From positions 128,001 through 192,000 of the IMG/VR virus record IMGVR_UViG_3300021387_001774: 64,000 nt of DNA; one strand, given 5' to 3'. Positions 1,582-47,770 of the stretch are shown piece by piece. The DNA is from a virus. Its lineage: Duplodnaviria > Caudoviricetes. A program made the position numbers and the translations under genes. Every line of letters begins with the position of its first letter. The first letter of the stretch is position 1. The notes under the pieces were generated by a model. It did no database searches. It was not told the origin of the DNA and worked only from the letters and a program-made list of their open reading frames with translations.

Positions 1582-3654
1582 TTATTTATATTCTTTAGCT
1601 AATACTTCGTTTGTACGATGTTGATCTTTTAATATATAATATTGCTCATCTTTATCAAACTTATTCAAATTTACACATAACATGAATTTCTTTGTTTCTC
1701 TATTGAATATATAGAACTGATATTCTGGATCAGGTTTCAGTACTTCTTCACGATTTATAGCAAAGAAATCATTCTTGTCTTTAAAATAAAATTGTAGATC
1801 GTCTCTTACTTCTACTACTTCTGCTAGTACAGGTATAAAATCTCCATCAACACTCTTTGTATAGTATTGATAATCTGGCGAAGCAATGCAGAAATCTTGT
1901 GTCTTTATAGGTACGAATGTATCGTTCTCGAGACTCTTTACAAGATAATGCCATCCTCTACGATGTGCAAACTTCCAGAAGTATTCACTACCTACAGTTA
2001 AGAAGAAAGTTTTATCATAATAAAATCTAGAGCCATTTTCATCTACACCATCAAGTGTTGCTGTAAATGAATCATTATCTTTAGTAGAAGTACCATCGCT
2101 ACCATTATTACTAGTACTATCATCAAGATAATATTGTTTTGTAATTGGATTATATCTATAAGTACCTGTTCCAAATTTACTTTTCTTTGTATGAGTTATA
2201 TATTGGAAAAGTATTTTATAAACATTTCCTTTACCCATATTTATAATATCTTTAAATGTAGTTCCAGTTTTATCAAGAATAATACCAGCATTATAAAGTT
2301 TATTTAAAATATATTCAATCTTTGTTTGATATATTTCCTTATTTATAAAAATATCGATATAATATGGAACCATAAGATCACAATCATGTACTGTAATAGT
2401 AAAATTCTCATCAACTTCATATTTGTCTTTTGATAATGGTTCATTATGTTTATAAATATCTATATCAAAAAGTCTGTTAAACTCTTCTTTACTTTTTATT
2501 GTATCTAATAACGCACTTATTATATAATAAGCTGAAGGAGTATCATTTGGATCTATTACTTCATCGAGGATGTTGAACTTTTCTTCTTTAGTACTCATCA
2601 TAATTTCATATTCTGTATAAAATAGATTCCAACGTTTATCTACTGTTAATCTTTTACGATCATCTTTAAACACTTCTTTAAAAGTCATTATATTAGAACG
2701 ATTCTTATAATCCTTTGTAGAAGACAGTCGGATGTAATGATCGTTCTTTCTTCCACGAATTATAGCTGGTACATTAGTAATAAAACTAATAGGGTTAGCA
2801 TATTCCATCCAACCTGAAGTTGTAACTTCAAATCCGGTATAAGCTCCACCTTTTTTAGTACCTTCATCACCATCAGGACGTTCTATTCTAAATGTGATAT
2901 ATTGTGTTCTTGCTAATGAATACACATAATTCGTAACGCCTGTTTCTGTATCTTGTTCTCTAAATGGTTTAATAGCTTTATTAGAAAAATCATAAAGATA
3001 TTCTGTAAAACGATCATTAATTCTATTTCGATAATTTCGTTTATCCTCAGAATCTCCAACCATTTTTTCTAGCATATCCATCTCATATTTAAATACAGAT
3101 TTCTTTATATATTCCATCATTAAGTTTGGAAGTAATATCTTTGTTTCTACTGGAATAACTTGAACATACATGTGTTTAAGATTTGAATCACAGTAGTTAA
3201 ACATAGAAAGTTGATCAGCCTTGGTTTGTAATTGTATTCTAATATCAAAATTATTTCTAATAGTATAATCATTAGAACAAAGAATTACACCATATGGATC
3301 ATAAAAGAAAGGTTTATATCCGGTAAGATCTGTATCAATCATAAATGCACCAGGTTGTTGATTAGGATTCCAGAAGTTACCAAATACTTCGTCCATATTA
3401 TTTTTACCCTGATTAACATTCATTCTAAGAGCAGGCTGTAAAATCTTTTGACCTGGAGCAGTTTTCTGTAATTCTCCCGTTTGTTCATTAATTATGTATG
3501 ATGAAGCGGCGGAAGATTGTGTATTTAAGAAAATATGATTAAAAAATCCAGGAGAGAATCTACTTATAAACCATTCTAGAACTCTCTTAGCTATATCATC
3601 TTGAAATATTTTATTACTTGTTGATGGGAATGTTCCCAAACGTATTGTTCCCAT
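1582..3654 (-). CDS. Large hypothetical protein, probable virion structural protein
   Basis: ~690-aa ORF; start at ATG 3654 with GAGGTG SD; C-terminal Tyr-rich repeats shared with the 45575 and 49753 ORFs; structural role is inference. Confidence 0.6.
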   Translation of the reverse strand: MGTIRLGTFPSTSNKIFQDDIAKRVLEWFISRFSPGFFNHIFLNTQSSAASSYIINEQTGELQKTAPGQKILQPALRMNVNQGKNNMDEVFGNFWNPNQQPGAFMIDTDLTGYKPFFYDPYGVILCSNDYTIRNNFDIRIQLQTKADQLSMFNYCDSNLKHMYVQVIPVETKILLPNLMMEYIKKSVFKYEMDMLEKMVGDSEDKRNYRNRINDRFTEYLYDFSNKAIKPFREQDTETGVTNYVYSLARTQYITFRIERPDGDEGTKKGGAYTGFEVTTSGWMEYANPISFITNVPAIIRGRKNDHYIRLSSTKDYKNRSNIMTFKEVFKDDRKRLTVDKRWNLFYTEYEIMMSTKEEKFNILDEVIDPNDTPSAYYIISALLDTIKSKEEFNRLFDIDIYKHNEPLSKDKYEVDENFTITVHDCDLMVPYYIDIFINKEIYQTKIEYILNKLYNAGIILDKTGTTFKDIINMGKGNVYKILFQYITHTKKSKFGTGTYRYNPITKQYYLDDSTSNNGSDGTSTKDNDSFTATLDGVDENGSRFYYDKTFFLTVGSEYFWKFAHRRGWHYLVKSLENDTFVPIKTQDFCIASPDYQYYTKSVDGDFIPVLAEVVEVRDDLQFYFKDKNDFFAINREEVLKPDPEYQFYIFNRETKKFMLCVNLNKFDKDEQYYILKDQHRTNEVLAKEYK

Positions 3655-3699: not shown

Positions 3700-4063
3700 T
3701 TACTGTTCAAACTATATAGTCTAATTATATTTATGGAAGATAGAAATAGAGTAGGGTGCTGTAACACCCTACTCTATAAATTTAATTATCTTTCAAGGAG
3801 GTGATTTTTATGTATCAGTACTGGTATTCCATAAACGACAATGGGGTACTAAAATCAGATTATACTTATCTTACGAGAGATGAGTATATTAAGGTTACTG
3901 GACATACTCCAGAATTCATGGGAGCATATAGAGTTGCATAACTTTACTCTCATGAAACCTTATCGAAGAAAGATAATATACTATAATGTATATTTATTAA
4001 TTAAAAAAATAAACTCTCAGAGATATCTGAGAGTTTAACAGGTCAACTAACAGTACCTGTTTT
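3700..4063 (+). repeat. Copy 1 of duplicated structured small-ORF cassette
   Basis: Shares near-identical ~105-nt leader, 3' AAGAAAGATAATATACTATAATGTATATT block and two terminal hairpins with 45136-45573. Confidence 0.9.
3810..3941 (+). CDS. 43-aa peptide of cassette copy 1
   Basis: SD AAGGAGGTGA at 3795-3804; MYQYWYSINDNGVLKSDYTYLTRDEYIKVTGHTPEFMGAYRVA; homologous to 45252..45419. Confidence 0.8.
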   Translation: MYQYWYSINDNGVLKSDYTYLTRDEYIKVTGHTPEFMGAYRVA

Positions 4064-4100
4064 ATTTTTTATCATTCAAGTTTATATGTTACATAGAGTG

Positions 4101-8082: not shown

Positions 8083-8175
8083 ACTAATTTCCTCCGTATA
8101 TTACTTTAATAATATATATTTAAGAAAAAAATAAAAAGAGCAGAATTAACTACTCTTTTTATTTAAAATGTGAAA

Positions 8176-8646
8176 TCATTCAATATAACCATCTTCTAAC
8201 CGTTTGATAACAACTTCCATAGCATCATCGATATTCATTTCTAAACAATTTTCAAGACAAATAGATATGCATTTGAAATTAAGATCTGATATACATTCAT
8301 TATTTATCGTTAAATATGGACTATAATAATGCATGTCAACATATCCTGGTTTAACTTTAGCATAATTATAAATACTAAAATGCGTATCAAATATATTCGT
8401 AAAACTCTCAACAATATCTATATTTGTTTCAAATGTGATTTTTATATAATTACATCGATTGTTATATCTTATAAATATATCATCTATATTTTCAACATCT
8501 TTCAATAATGTAGCTAATGCTCTCATACCTTTCGTCAGTTTTGCAGATTTTGCTATTTTTTCCTGTCTTTTTCTCTCTTCTTTTGCTTCTTCAATAGTCT
8601 TGCGTTTATCATCACATTTTTTCAATAAATCTCCATACTTACCCAT
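8176..8646 (-). CDS. Hypothetical protein
   Basis: 156-aa ORF with AGGAGG SD, own promoter and terminator. Confidence 0.7.
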   Translation of the reverse strand: MGKYGDLLKKCDDKRKTIEEAKEERKRQEKIAKSAKLTKGMRALATLLKDVENIDDIFIRYNNRCNYIKITFETNIDIVESFTNIFDTHFSIYNYAKVKPGYVDMHYYSPYLTINNECISDLNFKCISICLENCLEMNIDDAMEVVIKRLEDGYIE

Positions 8647-8748
8647 AGTATTATCCTCCTAAATTATTATAATAAGTACAACGTACTCATTAATATAATA
8701 TATAATTAAAAAAAGAGAGATTATTATAATCCCTCTTTCAATAAGCTA

Positions 8749-8850
8749 CTAATATTTCATTAGTAACTTTTCATAATAATTCACTGCAGCTAATGCAGCT
8801 ACAGTGAATCCTAGCATTATGATCCCTGTGATTACAACTAAATTGATCAT
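8749..8850 (-). CDS. 33-aa single-transmembrane peptide
   Basis: MINLVVITGIIMLGFTVAALAAVNYYEKLLMKY; AGGAG SD; own promoter (8914-8923), 5' hairpin and terminator. Confidence 0.65.
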   Translation of the reverse strand: MINLVVITGIIMLGFTVAALAAVNYYEKLLMKY

Positions 8851-8993
8851 TTTTAATCTCCTATGTTTTTATAATTTCCGGAAATAGAGTCTTTCTCTAT
8901 TCCTTACATTAATATAATATATAATCAACATAGGAGGTTTAACAGTAGTTAAAAAAAATAAAGGTGGAGTATAAATTCCACCTTTATTCTATC

Positions 8994-9251
8994 TTACTTA
9001 ATTACATTTGAGCAATCATGATAAATTTTTAATAAAAGTTCACGCACCACATTATAATTTCTTATAATATTAACAATTGAGTTACTATCAATCGATGGAT
9101 ATTCATCTGGATTCTTAGCGGAATCCGCTAATCCACTCATAATATTATCAATTGTATCGAGACTAAGTTTCAATGATGTATAAATATGTGATGATAACAA
9201 TGAAACATCATTAGCTAATTTCAGTTCTTTCTCATTGTAGTTCTTTTCCAT
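8994..9251 (-). CDS. Hypothetical protein
   Basis: ATG 9251 behind AGGAGAG; own promoter and terminator. Confidence 0.6.
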   Translation of the reverse strand: MEKNYNEKELKLANDVSLLSSHIYTSLKLSLDTIDNIMSGLADSAKNPDEYPSIDSNSIVNIIRNYNVVRELLLKIYHDCSNVIK

Positions 9252-9391
9252 TCGCTCTCCTTTCTTTATCACAATATCTTATGACCATAGATAAAGATAT
9301 GGCATATGTAGTTTTCTCTCTACATCGTTTCATAAATATAATATATAAATAAAAAAAATAAAGGTAGGATATAATCCTACCTTTATTTTAA

Positions 9392-9829
9392 TTAAAGTTC
9401 TTCATCAACGATTCGTTTGAATTCATCCCAACTTATTTTATCAAAAGATATTGGAATATCTGATTTATTATCTTTGAAATCTTCTTCACATAATGTGCGA
9501 TAAATGGCGATAATTTTATCAGCATTTGGATTTTTTGATATAACGTGGAGCATATAAAATAAATCTGTTTTATGAAGAGTCAATTTATTATGACATTTGA
9601 ACCAAGCAGAAATCATTTGTTTAGTATAACCCATTTGTTCGCTCAATTTAGTTAAATTGATTCCTCCGATAATCATGGATGAATAAAGAAATTCAAATCT
9701 TATCGATTTAATATCTGTAATTTTATATCGATGATAACTCATATTACGCTCCTTCAGTTCTTTTTTCTGTTTATAATATTTTTTCTGATATTCTTTATTG
9801 TACTCTCTCATTTCTTCTTTAGTTTTCAT
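9392..9829 (-). CDS. Putative helix-turn-helix DNA-binding protein
   Basis: GINLTKLSEQMGYTKQMISAWFK resembles an XRE/Cro HTH; basic N-terminus. Confidence 0.55.
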   Translation of the reverse strand: MKTKEEMREYNKEYQKKYYKQKKELKERNMSYHRYKITDIKSIRFEFLYSSMIIGGINLTKLSEQMGYTKQMISAWFKCHNKLTLHKTDLFYMLHVISKNPNADKIIAIYRTLCEEDFKDNKSDIPISFDKISWDEFKRIVDEEL

Positions 9830-9977
9830 ATTTCTTTTCTTCCTTATGTTTATAGTAGTATCATCTCTACTTCGATAATATAATTAATAATAAGTGTAAC
9901 ACACTCATTAATATAATATATAATTAAAAAAATAAAGGTAGGATAAATTATATCCTACCTTTTAATTAATTAAGTAA

Positions 9978-10904
9978 TTATTTCATATTAAAACATTCGT
10001 CAATAAAATATGCTAAAAGATTTTTAGCAGAAGCTAATTCTTTAGATTCATCAATAGTACTATAGAATTCACAATCTTTAATTTTAGGTTCAATATACTT
10101 ATTATAACGCCTTTTAATACTTTCTAATTCAAATATATCATTTTCTCTAAGCTCATTACACATAGCAATCATATTTTTATCAGTTCCATATCTTTCAGGA
10201 TAATATTTTTCAACAATATTGAATATCTGATTCTTTATGTATTGTACAATAGAAATAGTTACAGAATAATTTGAATTTTTCAATTCGTCTGATTGTTTAA
10301 TCGAATTTCTTAATTCAGATTTTGATAAAGTATTTTTGTGGAACAAAGATTCATATACGAATTTCAAAATATATTCGCTAGTTTCTTTATCACTCTTTTC
10401 GATTATTTGATAAGCTCGTTCGAGTAAAAGCATTTTATATGTTTTAATCAACTTACTTATATCTATACACATTTTCTGCATCATTGTTGATCCATCTATG
10501 ATTTTTGTTTTATTATGTTTTAGATTTACAGTACTACCAAAAAGATTTTCAAATCCAGTTCCAGTAAATAAATCGTTGAATTCTTTATCTGAATCTTTAG
10601 TTTTAAGAGCTAATTCATCAGGATAATATTTTTCAACAATATTAATTATATTATTAAATGTTAATAATAAAATATTTTTATCATCAATTAAACTATTAGT
10701 TAAATTTCCGAGAGTTACACTAGTTTTTTCAAACATTTCCGTAGGGTTGAAACCACCAAAATATGTTTTATGGTGTCTTTCCAGTTCATTTTGTGTAGCT
10801 TCTTTTTCTCGTTTTTCTTGAATTTTAGTTATAACGATTGGTAAACCAATACTAATACCAAGTATTCCTAATGCTTCAAGAATTGATTTAACAGTATCAT
10901 TCAT
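9978..10904 (-). CDS. Hypothetical protein with N-terminal membrane anchor
   Basis: ILEALGILGISIGLPIVI hydrophobic N-terminus; internal duplicated motif NIVEKYYP. Confidence 0.65.
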   Translation of the reverse strand: MNDTVKSILEALGILGISIGLPIVITKIQEKREKEATQNELERHHKTYFGGFNPTEMFEKTSVTLGNLTNSLIDDKNILLLTFNNIINIVEKYYPDELALKTKDSDKEFNDLFTGTGFENLFGSTVNLKHNKTKIIDGSTMMQKMCIDISKLIKTYKMLLLERAYQIIEKSDKETSEYILKFVYESLFHKNTLSKSELRNSIKQSDELKNSNYSVTISIVQYIKNQIFNIVEKYYPERYGTDKNMIAMCNELRENDIFELESIKRRYNKYIEPKIKDCEFYSTIDESKELASAKNLLAYFIDECFNMK

Positions 10905-11045
10905 AATTCTTATTCATCCTTATGTTATATTAGTAGTAACATCACTACTTCCTATTTAATTAATATTTATAAGAATCAACGATCCTTTTACATAAATATA
11001 ATATATAATTAAAAAAAGAAAGGACCGAAGTCCTTTCTTTTACTT

Positions 11046-45135: not shown

Positions 45136-45573
45136 TTACTGTTCAAACTATACTGTCTAATCATATATTATATTTATGGAAGATAGAAATAGAGTAGGGT
45201 GTTACCGCACCCTACTCTATAAATTTAATTATCTTTCAAGGAGGTGATTGTATGGTAAGAAAATACATCTATTTTACATCCAAAATGGATGAGAATGGAA
45301 ATGTATGTAAAGACCCCGATTTTATTCTTCTCGATAGAGATGAATATAAACGAACCCTAGGGGTTTATCCAGAACAAACTGGAGCCAGCTCAATGCTAGT
45401 TCCAAAAGACTGGAGATAAGACATACTTTCTTATTCTCTCATGGGCTCAAAGAAAGATAATATACTATAATGTATATTATTAAATAGAAAAATAAACTCC
45501 ATAATGAAGACTCGTTGAAGACATTATGGAGTTTGACAGGTCAACTGATATTAACGTATCAGTACCTGTTTTT
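45136..45573 (+). repeat. Copy 2 of duplicated structured small-ORF cassette
   Basis: Homologous to 3700-4063 in leader, peptide and 3' elements. Confidence 0.9.
45252..45419 (+). CDS. 55-aa peptide of cassette copy 2
   Basis: SD AAGGAGGTGA at 45238-45247; MVRKYIYFTSKMDENGNVCKDPDFILLDRDEYKRTLGVYPEQTGASSMLVPKDWR. Confidence 0.8.
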   Translation: MVRKYIYFTSKMDENGNVCKDPDFILLDRDEYKRTLGVYPEQTGASSMLVPKDWR

Positions 45574-45574
45574 T

Positions 45575-47770
45575 TTATTTTTTAAGCGTATAATAATCTC
45601 TAGTAAATTCACAAATATAATAATCTTTATCTACTTGGAACTCTGTATTCGTTGAAGGAACTCTTACATATTCATCGCCTTCTTTTGTGAAGTAGACTTG
45701 ATGTTGATTATAACCTAAAGCCTTTTCATCTTGGGAAACAAACCTGAATTCCTTTTTAAATGACGTTACATGAGCATCACCAATGTATGTTTTCTTTTCA
45801 GAGTCATATCTATAATAGACTGTATTCTCTATTGGACCATAAAGAAGTTCAGTATAGTTAAGTTTATGATAAGCATCATTTATCTTATCTCTTCTTACAA
45901 CTTGAAGTTTATAAGCAGAAACTCCTTCAAATACATCATCATATCCATGTCTATACCATTTCTCTGGAGCAAAGAAAACATTTTCACATTTATTTACAAA
46001 GTCATGACAAACACCATTCATTATAACAATATCATCAATATTCCAGTTTTCATTTATGAAATAGTTCTTTGTAGGTTTATTAAGTTTTATTTCTTCTCTA
46101 TTTTCTACAACTTCGATATCATAAGCTTTAGCAGCAATATTATCAAATTCGATAATAGCGTAAGTTCTATTTCTGAATTGTTCTACAACTACATCAAATG
46201 CTGAATGAGCATAATGATAGTTATCAGAACCAGAGGTTTCTCTCCACTCTTCTAGAGCTTGAGAATATTCTTGATATGCTGCATTGATACCTTCTTCATC
46301 GTCATTATGTAACTTTAAAAAGTCTTCAATCTTTGGTGATGCTACAATATCGTGAGATACTTGAGTAGAAAGATATTCTCTCATTCTTGAATACATTTCT
46401 GTGTAAAGAATATCGAATTCTAATTCGATAGTATTCAAGAATATAGATCCATCATCTTGTACTTCCCAAGAATCTTTATCAACAATCGTATTACCACAAA
46501 GAAGAATACTTTTATCTTTATTGACCTTATGTGAGAAATTAAGTTTATTTACCAACCAATAAGATTTGTTTGCTTCTTCTGCTACCGTTTTTAAAACCTT
46601 TCCCGTATGTAAAGGTTCAGTAAATGACGTTATAGAAATATTATCCCACTTGTAAATACGGATATCGAATACATAATTGTAACCAATCTTTTCTCTAGGT
46701 ATATCATATTTGATTATATCTATACCTTCTGCATTCTTTTCACCTACAGTTTTAGTACGAACTAAATAATCATCAATATTCACACCACTAATAAGTGTTT
46801 TAGGTTGTATAGCAGCATATTTAACAACGTCTTTAAGATATATTTGATTTTCTGATGGTCCTGGTATATAACCAACAATAACACCATTGAGAATGATAAA
46901 CAGATTAGTTAAATCTGTATATGGTTTATTCTCATTATCAATAAATGTCAATAATAAGTCATCAAACTTATGATTATTATTATTAGTATAAGTACCATTT
47001 GCAACAGTTTTTTCATCAATACTTGCTAATTTATAAGAGAATCTTGGCGAATTAGTAGCATGTACAGAATCTTTAGCATCCTTTTCTGTATCTGTAAATA
47101 CAATTCTAGGACACTCTTCAAACTTATATGTACCATCACCACGTTCAACAGAGTAAATGTAAGCGCTCTTATTGTATTGATCTCTTACAAAATACATAGC
47201 TTTAGGAATTTTGTTAACATCGGTAATTTGACAAAGAGTTACGAAATAATTATCTGTAAATGTACAATCGAATATTGTATTATCGCACACTTTAGTATAT
47301 ATAGAAGATTCCATAATATTTTCATTAATTGTACCTGTAAAGAAAGTACTGAAAATATTATCGGAATAATTTTTTACTGCAAAGTGAGGTCTAATCTTTC
47401 CAAGATCTATCCACTTACCATACTTATTTTTATAGTATTCATGTTGGAGTCCATATTTAAAAATCATTTCACGAATTACATCTAAGAAACGATATTGTCT
47501 ATGGGCTATATTTTTTTCTTCAGCAGTATCTATATAAGATGGTAAGACATGAAAAATAGGATGTAGACCAGATCTATCAACTCCAGCTTCATAGTTCTCA
47601 ATTCCATATGTAATATTTTGATCAGTTTGAGCATAGAGATAATCCAACGTAACTGCAATAGGAGTTATTCCATGCCCAAAATCAAATACTACAGTTCTAT
47701 TATAGAATTGATCAACCTTTTTAAAAGCTTGAGAAGTAGATATTACAGATTCAATAGCTAAATCTTCCAT
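45575..47770 (-). CDS. Probable virion structural protein
   Basis: 731 aa, beta-rich, in an operon of three large genes; C-terminal Tyr-rich repeats. Confidence 0.6.
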   Translation of the reverse strand: MEDLAIESVISTSQAFKKVDQFYNRTVVFDFGHGITPIAVTLDYLYAQTDQNITYGIENYEAGVDRSGLHPIFHVLPSYIDTAEEKNIAHRQYRFLDVIREMIFKYGLQHEYYKNKYGKWIDLGKIRPHFAVKNYSDNIFSTFFTGTINENIMESSIYTKVCDNTIFDCTFTDNYFVTLCQITDVNKIPKAMYFVRDQYNKSAYIYSVERGDGTYKFEECPRIVFTDTEKDAKDSVHATNSPRFSYKLASIDEKTVANGTYTNNNNHKFDDLLLTFIDNENKPYTDLTNLFIILNGVIVGYIPGPSENQIYLKDVVKYAAIQPKTLISGVNIDDYLVRTKTVGEKNAEGIDIIKYDIPREKIGYNYVFDIRIYKWDNISITSFTEPLHTGKVLKTVAEEANKSYWLVNKLNFSHKVNKDKSILLCGNTIVDKDSWEVQDDGSIFLNTIELEFDILYTEMYSRMREYLSTQVSHDIVASPKIEDFLKLHNDDEEGINAAYQEYSQALEEWRETSGSDNYHYAHSAFDVVVEQFRNRTYAIIEFDNIAAKAYDIEVVENREEIKLNKPTKNYFINENWNIDDIVIMNGVCHDFVNKCENVFFAPEKWYRHGYDDVFEGVSAYKLQVVRRDKINDAYHKLNYTELLYGPIENTVYYRYDSEKKTYIGDAHVTSFKKEFRFVSQDEKALGYNQHQVYFTKEGDEYVRVPSTNTEFQVDKDYYICEFTRDYYTLKK

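Follow-up and report, generated by a model that had tools for sequence, protein, structure and literature searches.

The window analysed here is a stretch of 64,000 nucleotides (positions 128001-192000) from a virus contig of 263,686 bp with 29.5% GC. The source is an AR9-like jumbo phage of about 264 kb from the ruminant gut. Long pieces of the window occur in gut and bovine-gut metagenome runs, and the usage of Shine-Dalgarno (SD) sequences suggests a Firmicute host. The window holds two copies of a compact unit, both on the plus strand, which runs in the order early promoter, 5' hairpin, strong SD, ORF of 43-55 aa, 3' block, hairpin and terminator (Table 1). The gene neighbouring copy 1 encodes a split RNA polymerase subunit with 23-28% identity to its counterparts in AR9, PBS1, phiR1-37 and staphylococcal jumbo phages.

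Table 1. Features of the two cassette copies in the window (window coordinates).
Copy	Feature	Position	Strand	Remarks
1	Upstream ACTGTT box	3700-3716	+	Common to a subset of the phage's early promoters
1	Early (virion RNAP) promoter, damaged	3717-3735	+	Predicted +1 at 3735
1	Leader	3735-3794	+	Inner 13-bp stem 3746-3777; outer stem closes just before the SD
1	Shine-Dalgarno	3795-3804	+	Read from the sequence
1	Protein, 43 aa	3810-3941	+	Allele type A, beta-beta-alpha family
1	3' fold-back strand	3958-3977	+	3958-3961 able to pair with the SD
1	Putative late-type (non-virion RNAP) antisense promoter	3976-3990	-	TACA-N6-TA-TA; predicted +1 at 3979
1	Predicted antisense RNA, about 240 nt	3737-3979	-	Over ORF and SD; inferred
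1	3' hairpin and bulged terminator hairpin	4011-4066	+	Hairpin 4011-4036 (minus-strand U-tract); terminator with U-tract 4037-4066
2	ACTGTT box and early promoter	45136-45178	+	Core 45162-45171; predicted +1 at 45178
2	Leader and SD	45178-45247	+	Hairpin 45189-45220, outer stem, SD 45238-45247
2	Protein, 55 aa	45252-45419	+	Allele type B
2	Fold-back strand overlapping putative late-type antisense promoter	45452-45474	+ / -	Fold-back 45452-45461 (+); promoter (-), predicted +1 at 45463
2	Predicted antisense RNA, about 285 nt	45180-45463	-	Inferred
2	3' hairpin and bulged terminator	45494-45575	+	

The original prediction described two such cassettes. The repeat is real and its motifs lie where they had been placed, but there are three copies rather than two. 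The third is outside the window (G000 215836-216235; nhmmer E=5e-42), and its 48-aa ORF encodes another member of the protein family. Copies 1 and 2 share 94% identity across the 83-nt leader, and the non-coding flanks do align far better than the ORFs, as had been claimed. The peptides of these two copies also align as expected (13/31 identity, E=1e-6). In other assemblies of the phage the sites of copies 2 and 3 hold units in tandem, with a different allele in each unit and the same flanks. In other strains the copy-2 site holds an E+B tandem and the copy-3 site a D+C tandem, whereas the source strain has single units; tandem units with new alleles are found in L016, L019 and L020. At least five allele types (A-E) are in circulation. 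Repeated promoter and stem-loop flanks, together with units that are gained, lost or replaced between strains, make the element PeSL-like (see below). Elsewhere in the window, several early genes at 8137-11012 are missing or replaced in strain X2, with the joints at repeated promoter-terminator elements.

How new is this unit? The original prediction had allowed that a known Rfam family might already explain the repeat, and none does. A tRNA alone reaches the threshold in the window, and the best rows for the cassette (10-32 bits) are all well under their gathering thresholds, among them cow-rumen-4 at 22 against a threshold of 48.5. Relatives of the cassette were not found in a DNA search of named phages, and scans of IMG/VR and GTDB by peptide or DNA pattern returned no relatives, with chance matches in coding regions only. 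A literature search of incomplete coverage turned up no account of a comparable unit. The cassette is conserved beyond the source genome and is undescribed. It would be a new variant among antisense-controlled small-protein modules.

One element that had been overlooked is the sense promoter. An AR9-type early promoter is present before copies 2 and 3. Its motif (a TATATATTAT core, then N6-G) has about 60 copies in the genome and equals the early motif of AR9, which is read by the AR9 virion polymerase (PMC5312081). The promoter lies directly upstream of the leader and is ranked 50 by the early PWM in copy 2 (score 21) and 21 in copy 3. Both promoters are intact, that of copy 2 with one mismatch. 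In copy 1, one of two 7-nt repeats is missing after 3723 and the early PWM score is -4.8; the missing 7 nt are present in run X2 and at locus L018. Because this repeat, intact in X2 and L018, has been lost from its promoter, copy 1 is probably weak or silent in the source strain.

The sense transcript would begin with a structured leader. That of copy 1 folds with z = -6.5 against shuffles. When stems were read sequence by sequence, all 11 leaders examined had one of 11-15 bp (z -4 to -7.5), with the sequence changed and the pairing kept. On the minus strand the same stem has a tail of 3-6 U in 11/11 leaders, and these U-tails are modest. It is plausible that the leader hairpin, read backwards with its 3-6 U, acts as the terminator of an antisense RNA. 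The leader alone is not special to the unit, since 5' hairpins are common in this phage and an unrelated gene has the matching layout. Most early transcripts begin with a 5' hairpin, and across the whole genome several other repeated leader families (3-8 copies each) lie downstream of early promoters and ahead of unrelated genes. The gene in question (L046 3479-3880 (-); G000 193479-193880) is an early one of 105 aa, which has the cassette leader layout and its own terminator but no antisense site.

Is the small ORF a genuine gene? Among the alleles there are 38 synonymous versus 31 non-synonymous codon changes, with no stops and no broken allele, and the copy 1 ORF differs from that of L018 by 6 synonymous versus 1 non-synonymous codon change. 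With its SD, this synonymous excess, a conserved family and a confidently modelled fold, the ORF has the appearance of a translated one. Profile searches found further family relatives of 43-76 aa. Those that could be traced lie in AT-rich contigs, mostly with matching promoter motifs and phage-type neighbours, and in similar phage contigs only. They sit behind a like promoter and leader wherever the contig extends far enough. A separate observation is that L032 (640-760) has a remnant second leader and SD upstream of its homologue, with an antisense-type motif between the units, and this arrangement suggests a decayed tandem unit.

The AlphaFold model of the protein (pLDDT 92.6) consists of a beta-hairpin, a helix, a short helix and a strand, which points to a soluble and well folded product. 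The peptides had been judged polar rather than membrane toxins, and this holds for the wider family: in 13 members the best 19-residue hydropathy is <=0.65 and there is no hydrophobic helix. The transmembrane helix of the classic membrane type I toxins (Fst, TxpA, Hok, AapA) is absent, and the model is beta-beta-alpha instead. The pI of family members ranges from 4.2 to 9.7. Nothing significant was found for the peptides in Pfam, PHROGs, PADLOC, PDB sequences or the ESM Atlas. The same is true of the peptide model in Foldseek searches of PDB and BFVD, where the weak rows do not prove the fold new. This family of small proteins appears to be undescribed, matching known families nowhere searched.

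Behind the stop codon lies a block that can pair with the leader. Positions 3968-3977 of copy 1 are the exact reverse complement of 3785-3794, the ten bases preceding the SD. In copy 3 both sides of the helix are changed and the helix is extended over the SD, and in the D alleles and L018 a full anti-SD is added to the fold-back. The pairing energy of C-type leaders is -14 to -20 kcal/mol when the 3' block is also of the C type, against -5 to -9 when it is of the window type. Once the 3' block is added, SD accessibility falls from 0.74 to 0.03 in L018 and from 0.38 to 0.07 in copy 3. When the growing transcript is folded, the pre-SD segment leaves the 5' arm and pairs with the 3' block instead; SD access drops in the A, C and D alleles and little in B and E. 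For full-length B-type mRNAs the fold-back is not predicted. Among close relatives, then, the 3' UTR is a candidate for folding back over the region of the SD, and the predicted pairing covaries; in distant homologues no clear fold-back was seen by eye. The support comes from about three independent versions, all close relatives, of a helix that partly overlaps the predicted antisense promoter.

Further downstream, the two-hairpin 3' motif is kept in L032 and L034 with one compensatory change, and L031, L036 and L037 have a plain terminator only. No trans-acting RNA able to pair over >=14 nt with the SD regions of the cassettes was found. Two likenesses were set aside as AT-rich coincidences, namely that of the 3' block to a dif/loxP site, in which copies 1 and 3 have an interrupted dif-like arm, and that of the 3' motif to tracrRNA.

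The most consequential correction concerns the minus strand. The motif TATACATTAT does lie there at 3992-3983 and 45476-45467, as the original prediction had it. However, it had been taken for the window-wide early motif, and for that class the sites rank 420, 1100 and 2162; they are a fair match to the late class. As an early promoter the site would have a core mismatch, no consensus prefix and a T instead of G at +1. Single mismatches are reported to affect the AR9 virion polymerase, and one has been linked to an inactive site (PMC5312081). A host sigma-A promoter was also considered and rejected, as inspection revealed no fitting -35 box.

The late consensus of the phage, RACA-N6-TA-TA, comes from an independent derivation on 44 genes that lack early promoters. 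It is like the late motif AACA-N6-TA of AR9 (PMC5312081). By the late PWM the three antisense sites rank 62, 71 and 151 among about 527,000 positions. Their scores (9.7 in copy 1 and 9.1 in copy 2) belong to the weak end of the class, which has a training minimum of 9.1 and a median of 17.5, and the sites carry two non-consensus (minority) bases, T at -11 and G at -2. In addition, AT-rich near-palindromes score on both strands, and an overlapping plus-strand late-type site reaches 8.5 in copies 1 and 2. The genome has 14 intergenic late-type sites in total that serve no gene, and three of them are the cassette sites.

One clue to the significance of these sites comes from the distant homologues. 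Four of the six have a late-type antisense site between -25 and +85 relative to the stop, and their sequences differ. The frequency among control ORFs of the source genome is 8/205 (Fisher p=9e-5), among control early ORFs 1/47 and among control neighbours in the homologues' own contigs 2/22 (p about 0.01 by hand), all at a score cut-off of 6.5 that was picked after seeing the data. In a fifth, an almost identical motif that departs from the consensus lies 133 nt out (score 4.1), and L037 has no late-type antisense site. The claim of a fully overlapping antisense RNA has in silico support, as an RNA of 240-285 nt ending at the leader hairpin; the class assigned to its promoter does not hold. 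An RNA library from the source sample has a 231-nt contig over the copy-2 ORF and none over the copy-1 ORF, but such contigs reveal no strand, ends or level and possibly include DNA, and the library was left unused.

How might these parts work together? At infection, the virion-packaged RNA polymerase would transcribe the unit from its consensus early promoter, a class taken from AR9. The 5' hairpin would protect the mRNA and leave the SD free during transcription. Once transcribed, the 3' block would swap in and, in several alleles, cover the SD, so that each mRNA is translated briefly; this folding is predicted, and in close relatives only. When the non-virion polymerase has been made, it would use the late promoter just behind the stop codon to produce a full-length antisense RNA. 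This RNA would end at the reversed leader hairpin and may silence the gene via duplex formation or polymerase collision. In other words, the packaged polymerase probably turns the gene on at the start of infection, and the later opposite-strand RNA of a second polymerase probably turns it off. The conserved flanks would allow whole units to be gained, lost and swapped by recombination, leaving each strain with its own allele set.

What would such a protein be for? Most likely it is an early host-takeover or counter-defence factor, needed briefly and harmful later. The early timing, the perfect SD, the non-essential and variable copy number and the allele diversity all point this way. We read the cassette as an architecture of the type I toxin-antitoxin kind put to use as a developmental timer, with an early host-takeover protein under its control, and put the probability of this reading at about 0.5. 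A fuller version is that a lytic jumbo phage has made a portable two-polymerase timer from the type I design, with a self-locking mRNA from the virion polymerase, its full-length antisense RNA from the late polymerase, a new class of soluble effector, and alleles collected and swapped by strains against varying targets in the host or rival phages. We hold this fuller version tentatively.

Perhaps the unit is simpler than this. It could be an ordinary shuffled early-gene cassette of the PeSL kind, in which a strongly expressed mRNA is stabilised and insulated by its hairpins, the 3' block serves as an RNA hairpin or scaffold, and the promoter match is an AT-rich accident that gives no functional antisense RNA. 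The 5' hairpins of most early transcripts, the repeated leader families and the 105-aa gene described above would all fit, as would the near-palindromic 3' block, the different hairpin that L032 has at that place and the weak promoter scores. However, accident does not readily explain why late-type antisense sites of different sequence lie behind distant homologues oftener than behind controls, or why changes in the 3' strand are matched in the part of the leader nearest the SD, and we consider this explanation rather unlikely. At the other extreme is a true type I toxin-antitoxin module, whose protein would kill the cell or halt it whenever the antisense RNA was missing. Such a module might maintain a carrier state or exclude a superinfecting relative with the same allele. 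Its attraction is the overlapping antisense layout, the SD lock by the 3' end, the dispersed and tandem paralogues and the allele diversity; these are type I hallmarks listed in PMC8594479. The difficulty is one of order. The sense strand needs the virion polymerase and the antisense comes later, which would put the toxin before the antitoxin, and the proteins have no hydrophobic helix. Copy 1, with an intact ORF and antisense site beside a damaged sense promoter, says nothing on toxicity. Since sense and antisense RNA would be made by two polymerases in turn, a timer is likelier than an addiction-type pair, and the timer is favoured over the other readings because the antitoxin-like RNA would come after the protein and not before. 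A true toxin-antitoxin module is improbable.

Two further ideas place the function elsewhere. The conserved 3' part might itself be a plus-strand sRNA of 85-110 nt, an A-rich single strand with two hairpins, which is either transcribed from the plus-strand late-type site that overlaps the antisense one or processed out of the 3' UTR. Scores for this plus-strand site are 8.5-9.0 in copies 1 and 2 and in L020, and the A-rich motif and bulged hairpin are kept, with the compensatory change, in L032 and L034. But the score is 1.2 in copy 3 and <=4.4 in distant homologues, and L031, L036 and L037 have only the plain terminator; this idea is improbable as well. Alternatively, the proteins might be p56-like inhibitors of the host uracil-DNA glycosylase, needed for uracil DNA, for which AR9-clade phages are otherwise known. 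VMY22 p56 heads the structural matches (Z 3.3, rmsd 5.0, 42 aligned), and a Ugi family search gave no match. Like the cassette protein, p56 Ung inhibitors and NUMOD1-like domains have a beta-hairpin and then a capped helix ending in Gly. However, Z is about 3 only; at 3.3 the p56 row does not rise above noise and equals those of homing-endonuclease DNA-binding domains, and there is no Pfam, PHROGs, PADLOC or PDB sequence match. The p56 motif, E-X-X-Y before the helix-ending Gly (PMC10303552), is absent in 13/13 members, and the spread of pI is unlike a DNA mimic. The phage also has its own dUTPase (L046 4867-5484 (-)), which makes thymine DNA likely, if not proven, and led us to drop the uracil-DNA idea; a p56-like role is very improbable. 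Family searches for ThyA and ThyX were negative. A phrog_6721 protein at L046 6486-7328 (-) looks ThyX-like by eye.

The timer reading borrows its layout from known systems. The aapA/IsoA system of Helicobacter pylori (PMC5416894) and hok/Sok, like the cassette, have a small ORF and several paralogous copies, and they have a cis antisense RNA of the kind predicted here. In both, the SD is occluded in the full-length mRNA by the 3' end, as is predicted for some of the cassette alleles, and such 5'-3' fold-back is a known device of type I toxin mRNAs, that of aapA included (PMC5416894, PMC8594479). They differ from the cassette in several ways. The cassette protein is modelled as soluble and globular and not as a membrane helix, its carrier is a lytic jumbo phage, its promoters belong to two phage polymerases in sequence, and the predicted antisense RNA covers the whole ORF. 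The cassette belongs to no classic type I family, and the likeness is one of layout. A cis antisense RNA also silences a regulatory gene in FinP/traJ, lambda OOP and P22 sar, and the leader hairpin of FinP doubles as the antisense terminator. However, these systems use the host polymerase, form no allele-swapping cassette and have no sequence relationship to the unit; the FinP and traJ rows in Rfam are sub-threshold, far under the gathering thresholds. The PeSLs of T4-type phages (PMC2839356) resemble the cassette in their repeated flanks of early promoter and stem-loop and in their non-essential orphan genes, which are gained, lost and replaced from strain to strain. PeSLs have sigma70-like promoters and flank unrelated genes, whereas the cassette carries one protein family, a predicted antisense promoter and a predicted SD lock.

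AR9 itself provides the comparison within the same clade and with the same early and late promoter motifs. Seven of its late promoters drive antisense RNA, for which the accessible part of the report gives no function and describes no repeated, structured, portable unit (PMC5312081). With AR9-type late antisense RNAs given no role there, the cassette would be a compact case with predicted starts and ends on both strands. How AR9/phiKZ-like phages shut off the early genes read by a virion-borne polymerase is, to our knowledge, poorly understood. The cassette also points to a diversifying new family of 43-75-aa proteins that the phage seemingly doses tightly, and tight dosing usually marks an effector of host takeover or counter-defence.

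Some other early units of this genome deserve mention. At about 8750-8925 (-) of the window, an early promoter with an ACTGTT box precedes a hydrophobic 33-aa peptide with a charged tail, which resembles a classic type I toxin more than the cassette proteins do; this unit has no antisense late site (score 4.3). Another early unit, at about 2880-3110 (+) of L047 (G000 224880-225110), has a 5' stem closing just before the SD, an acidic 17-aa ORF and a terminator. Finally, 15 nt at G000 203533-203547, which come after a tRNA-like unit and just before a terminator, are complementary to the SD and start codon of an early gene at 108242 (-), so that trans-acting silencing of early genes is possible.
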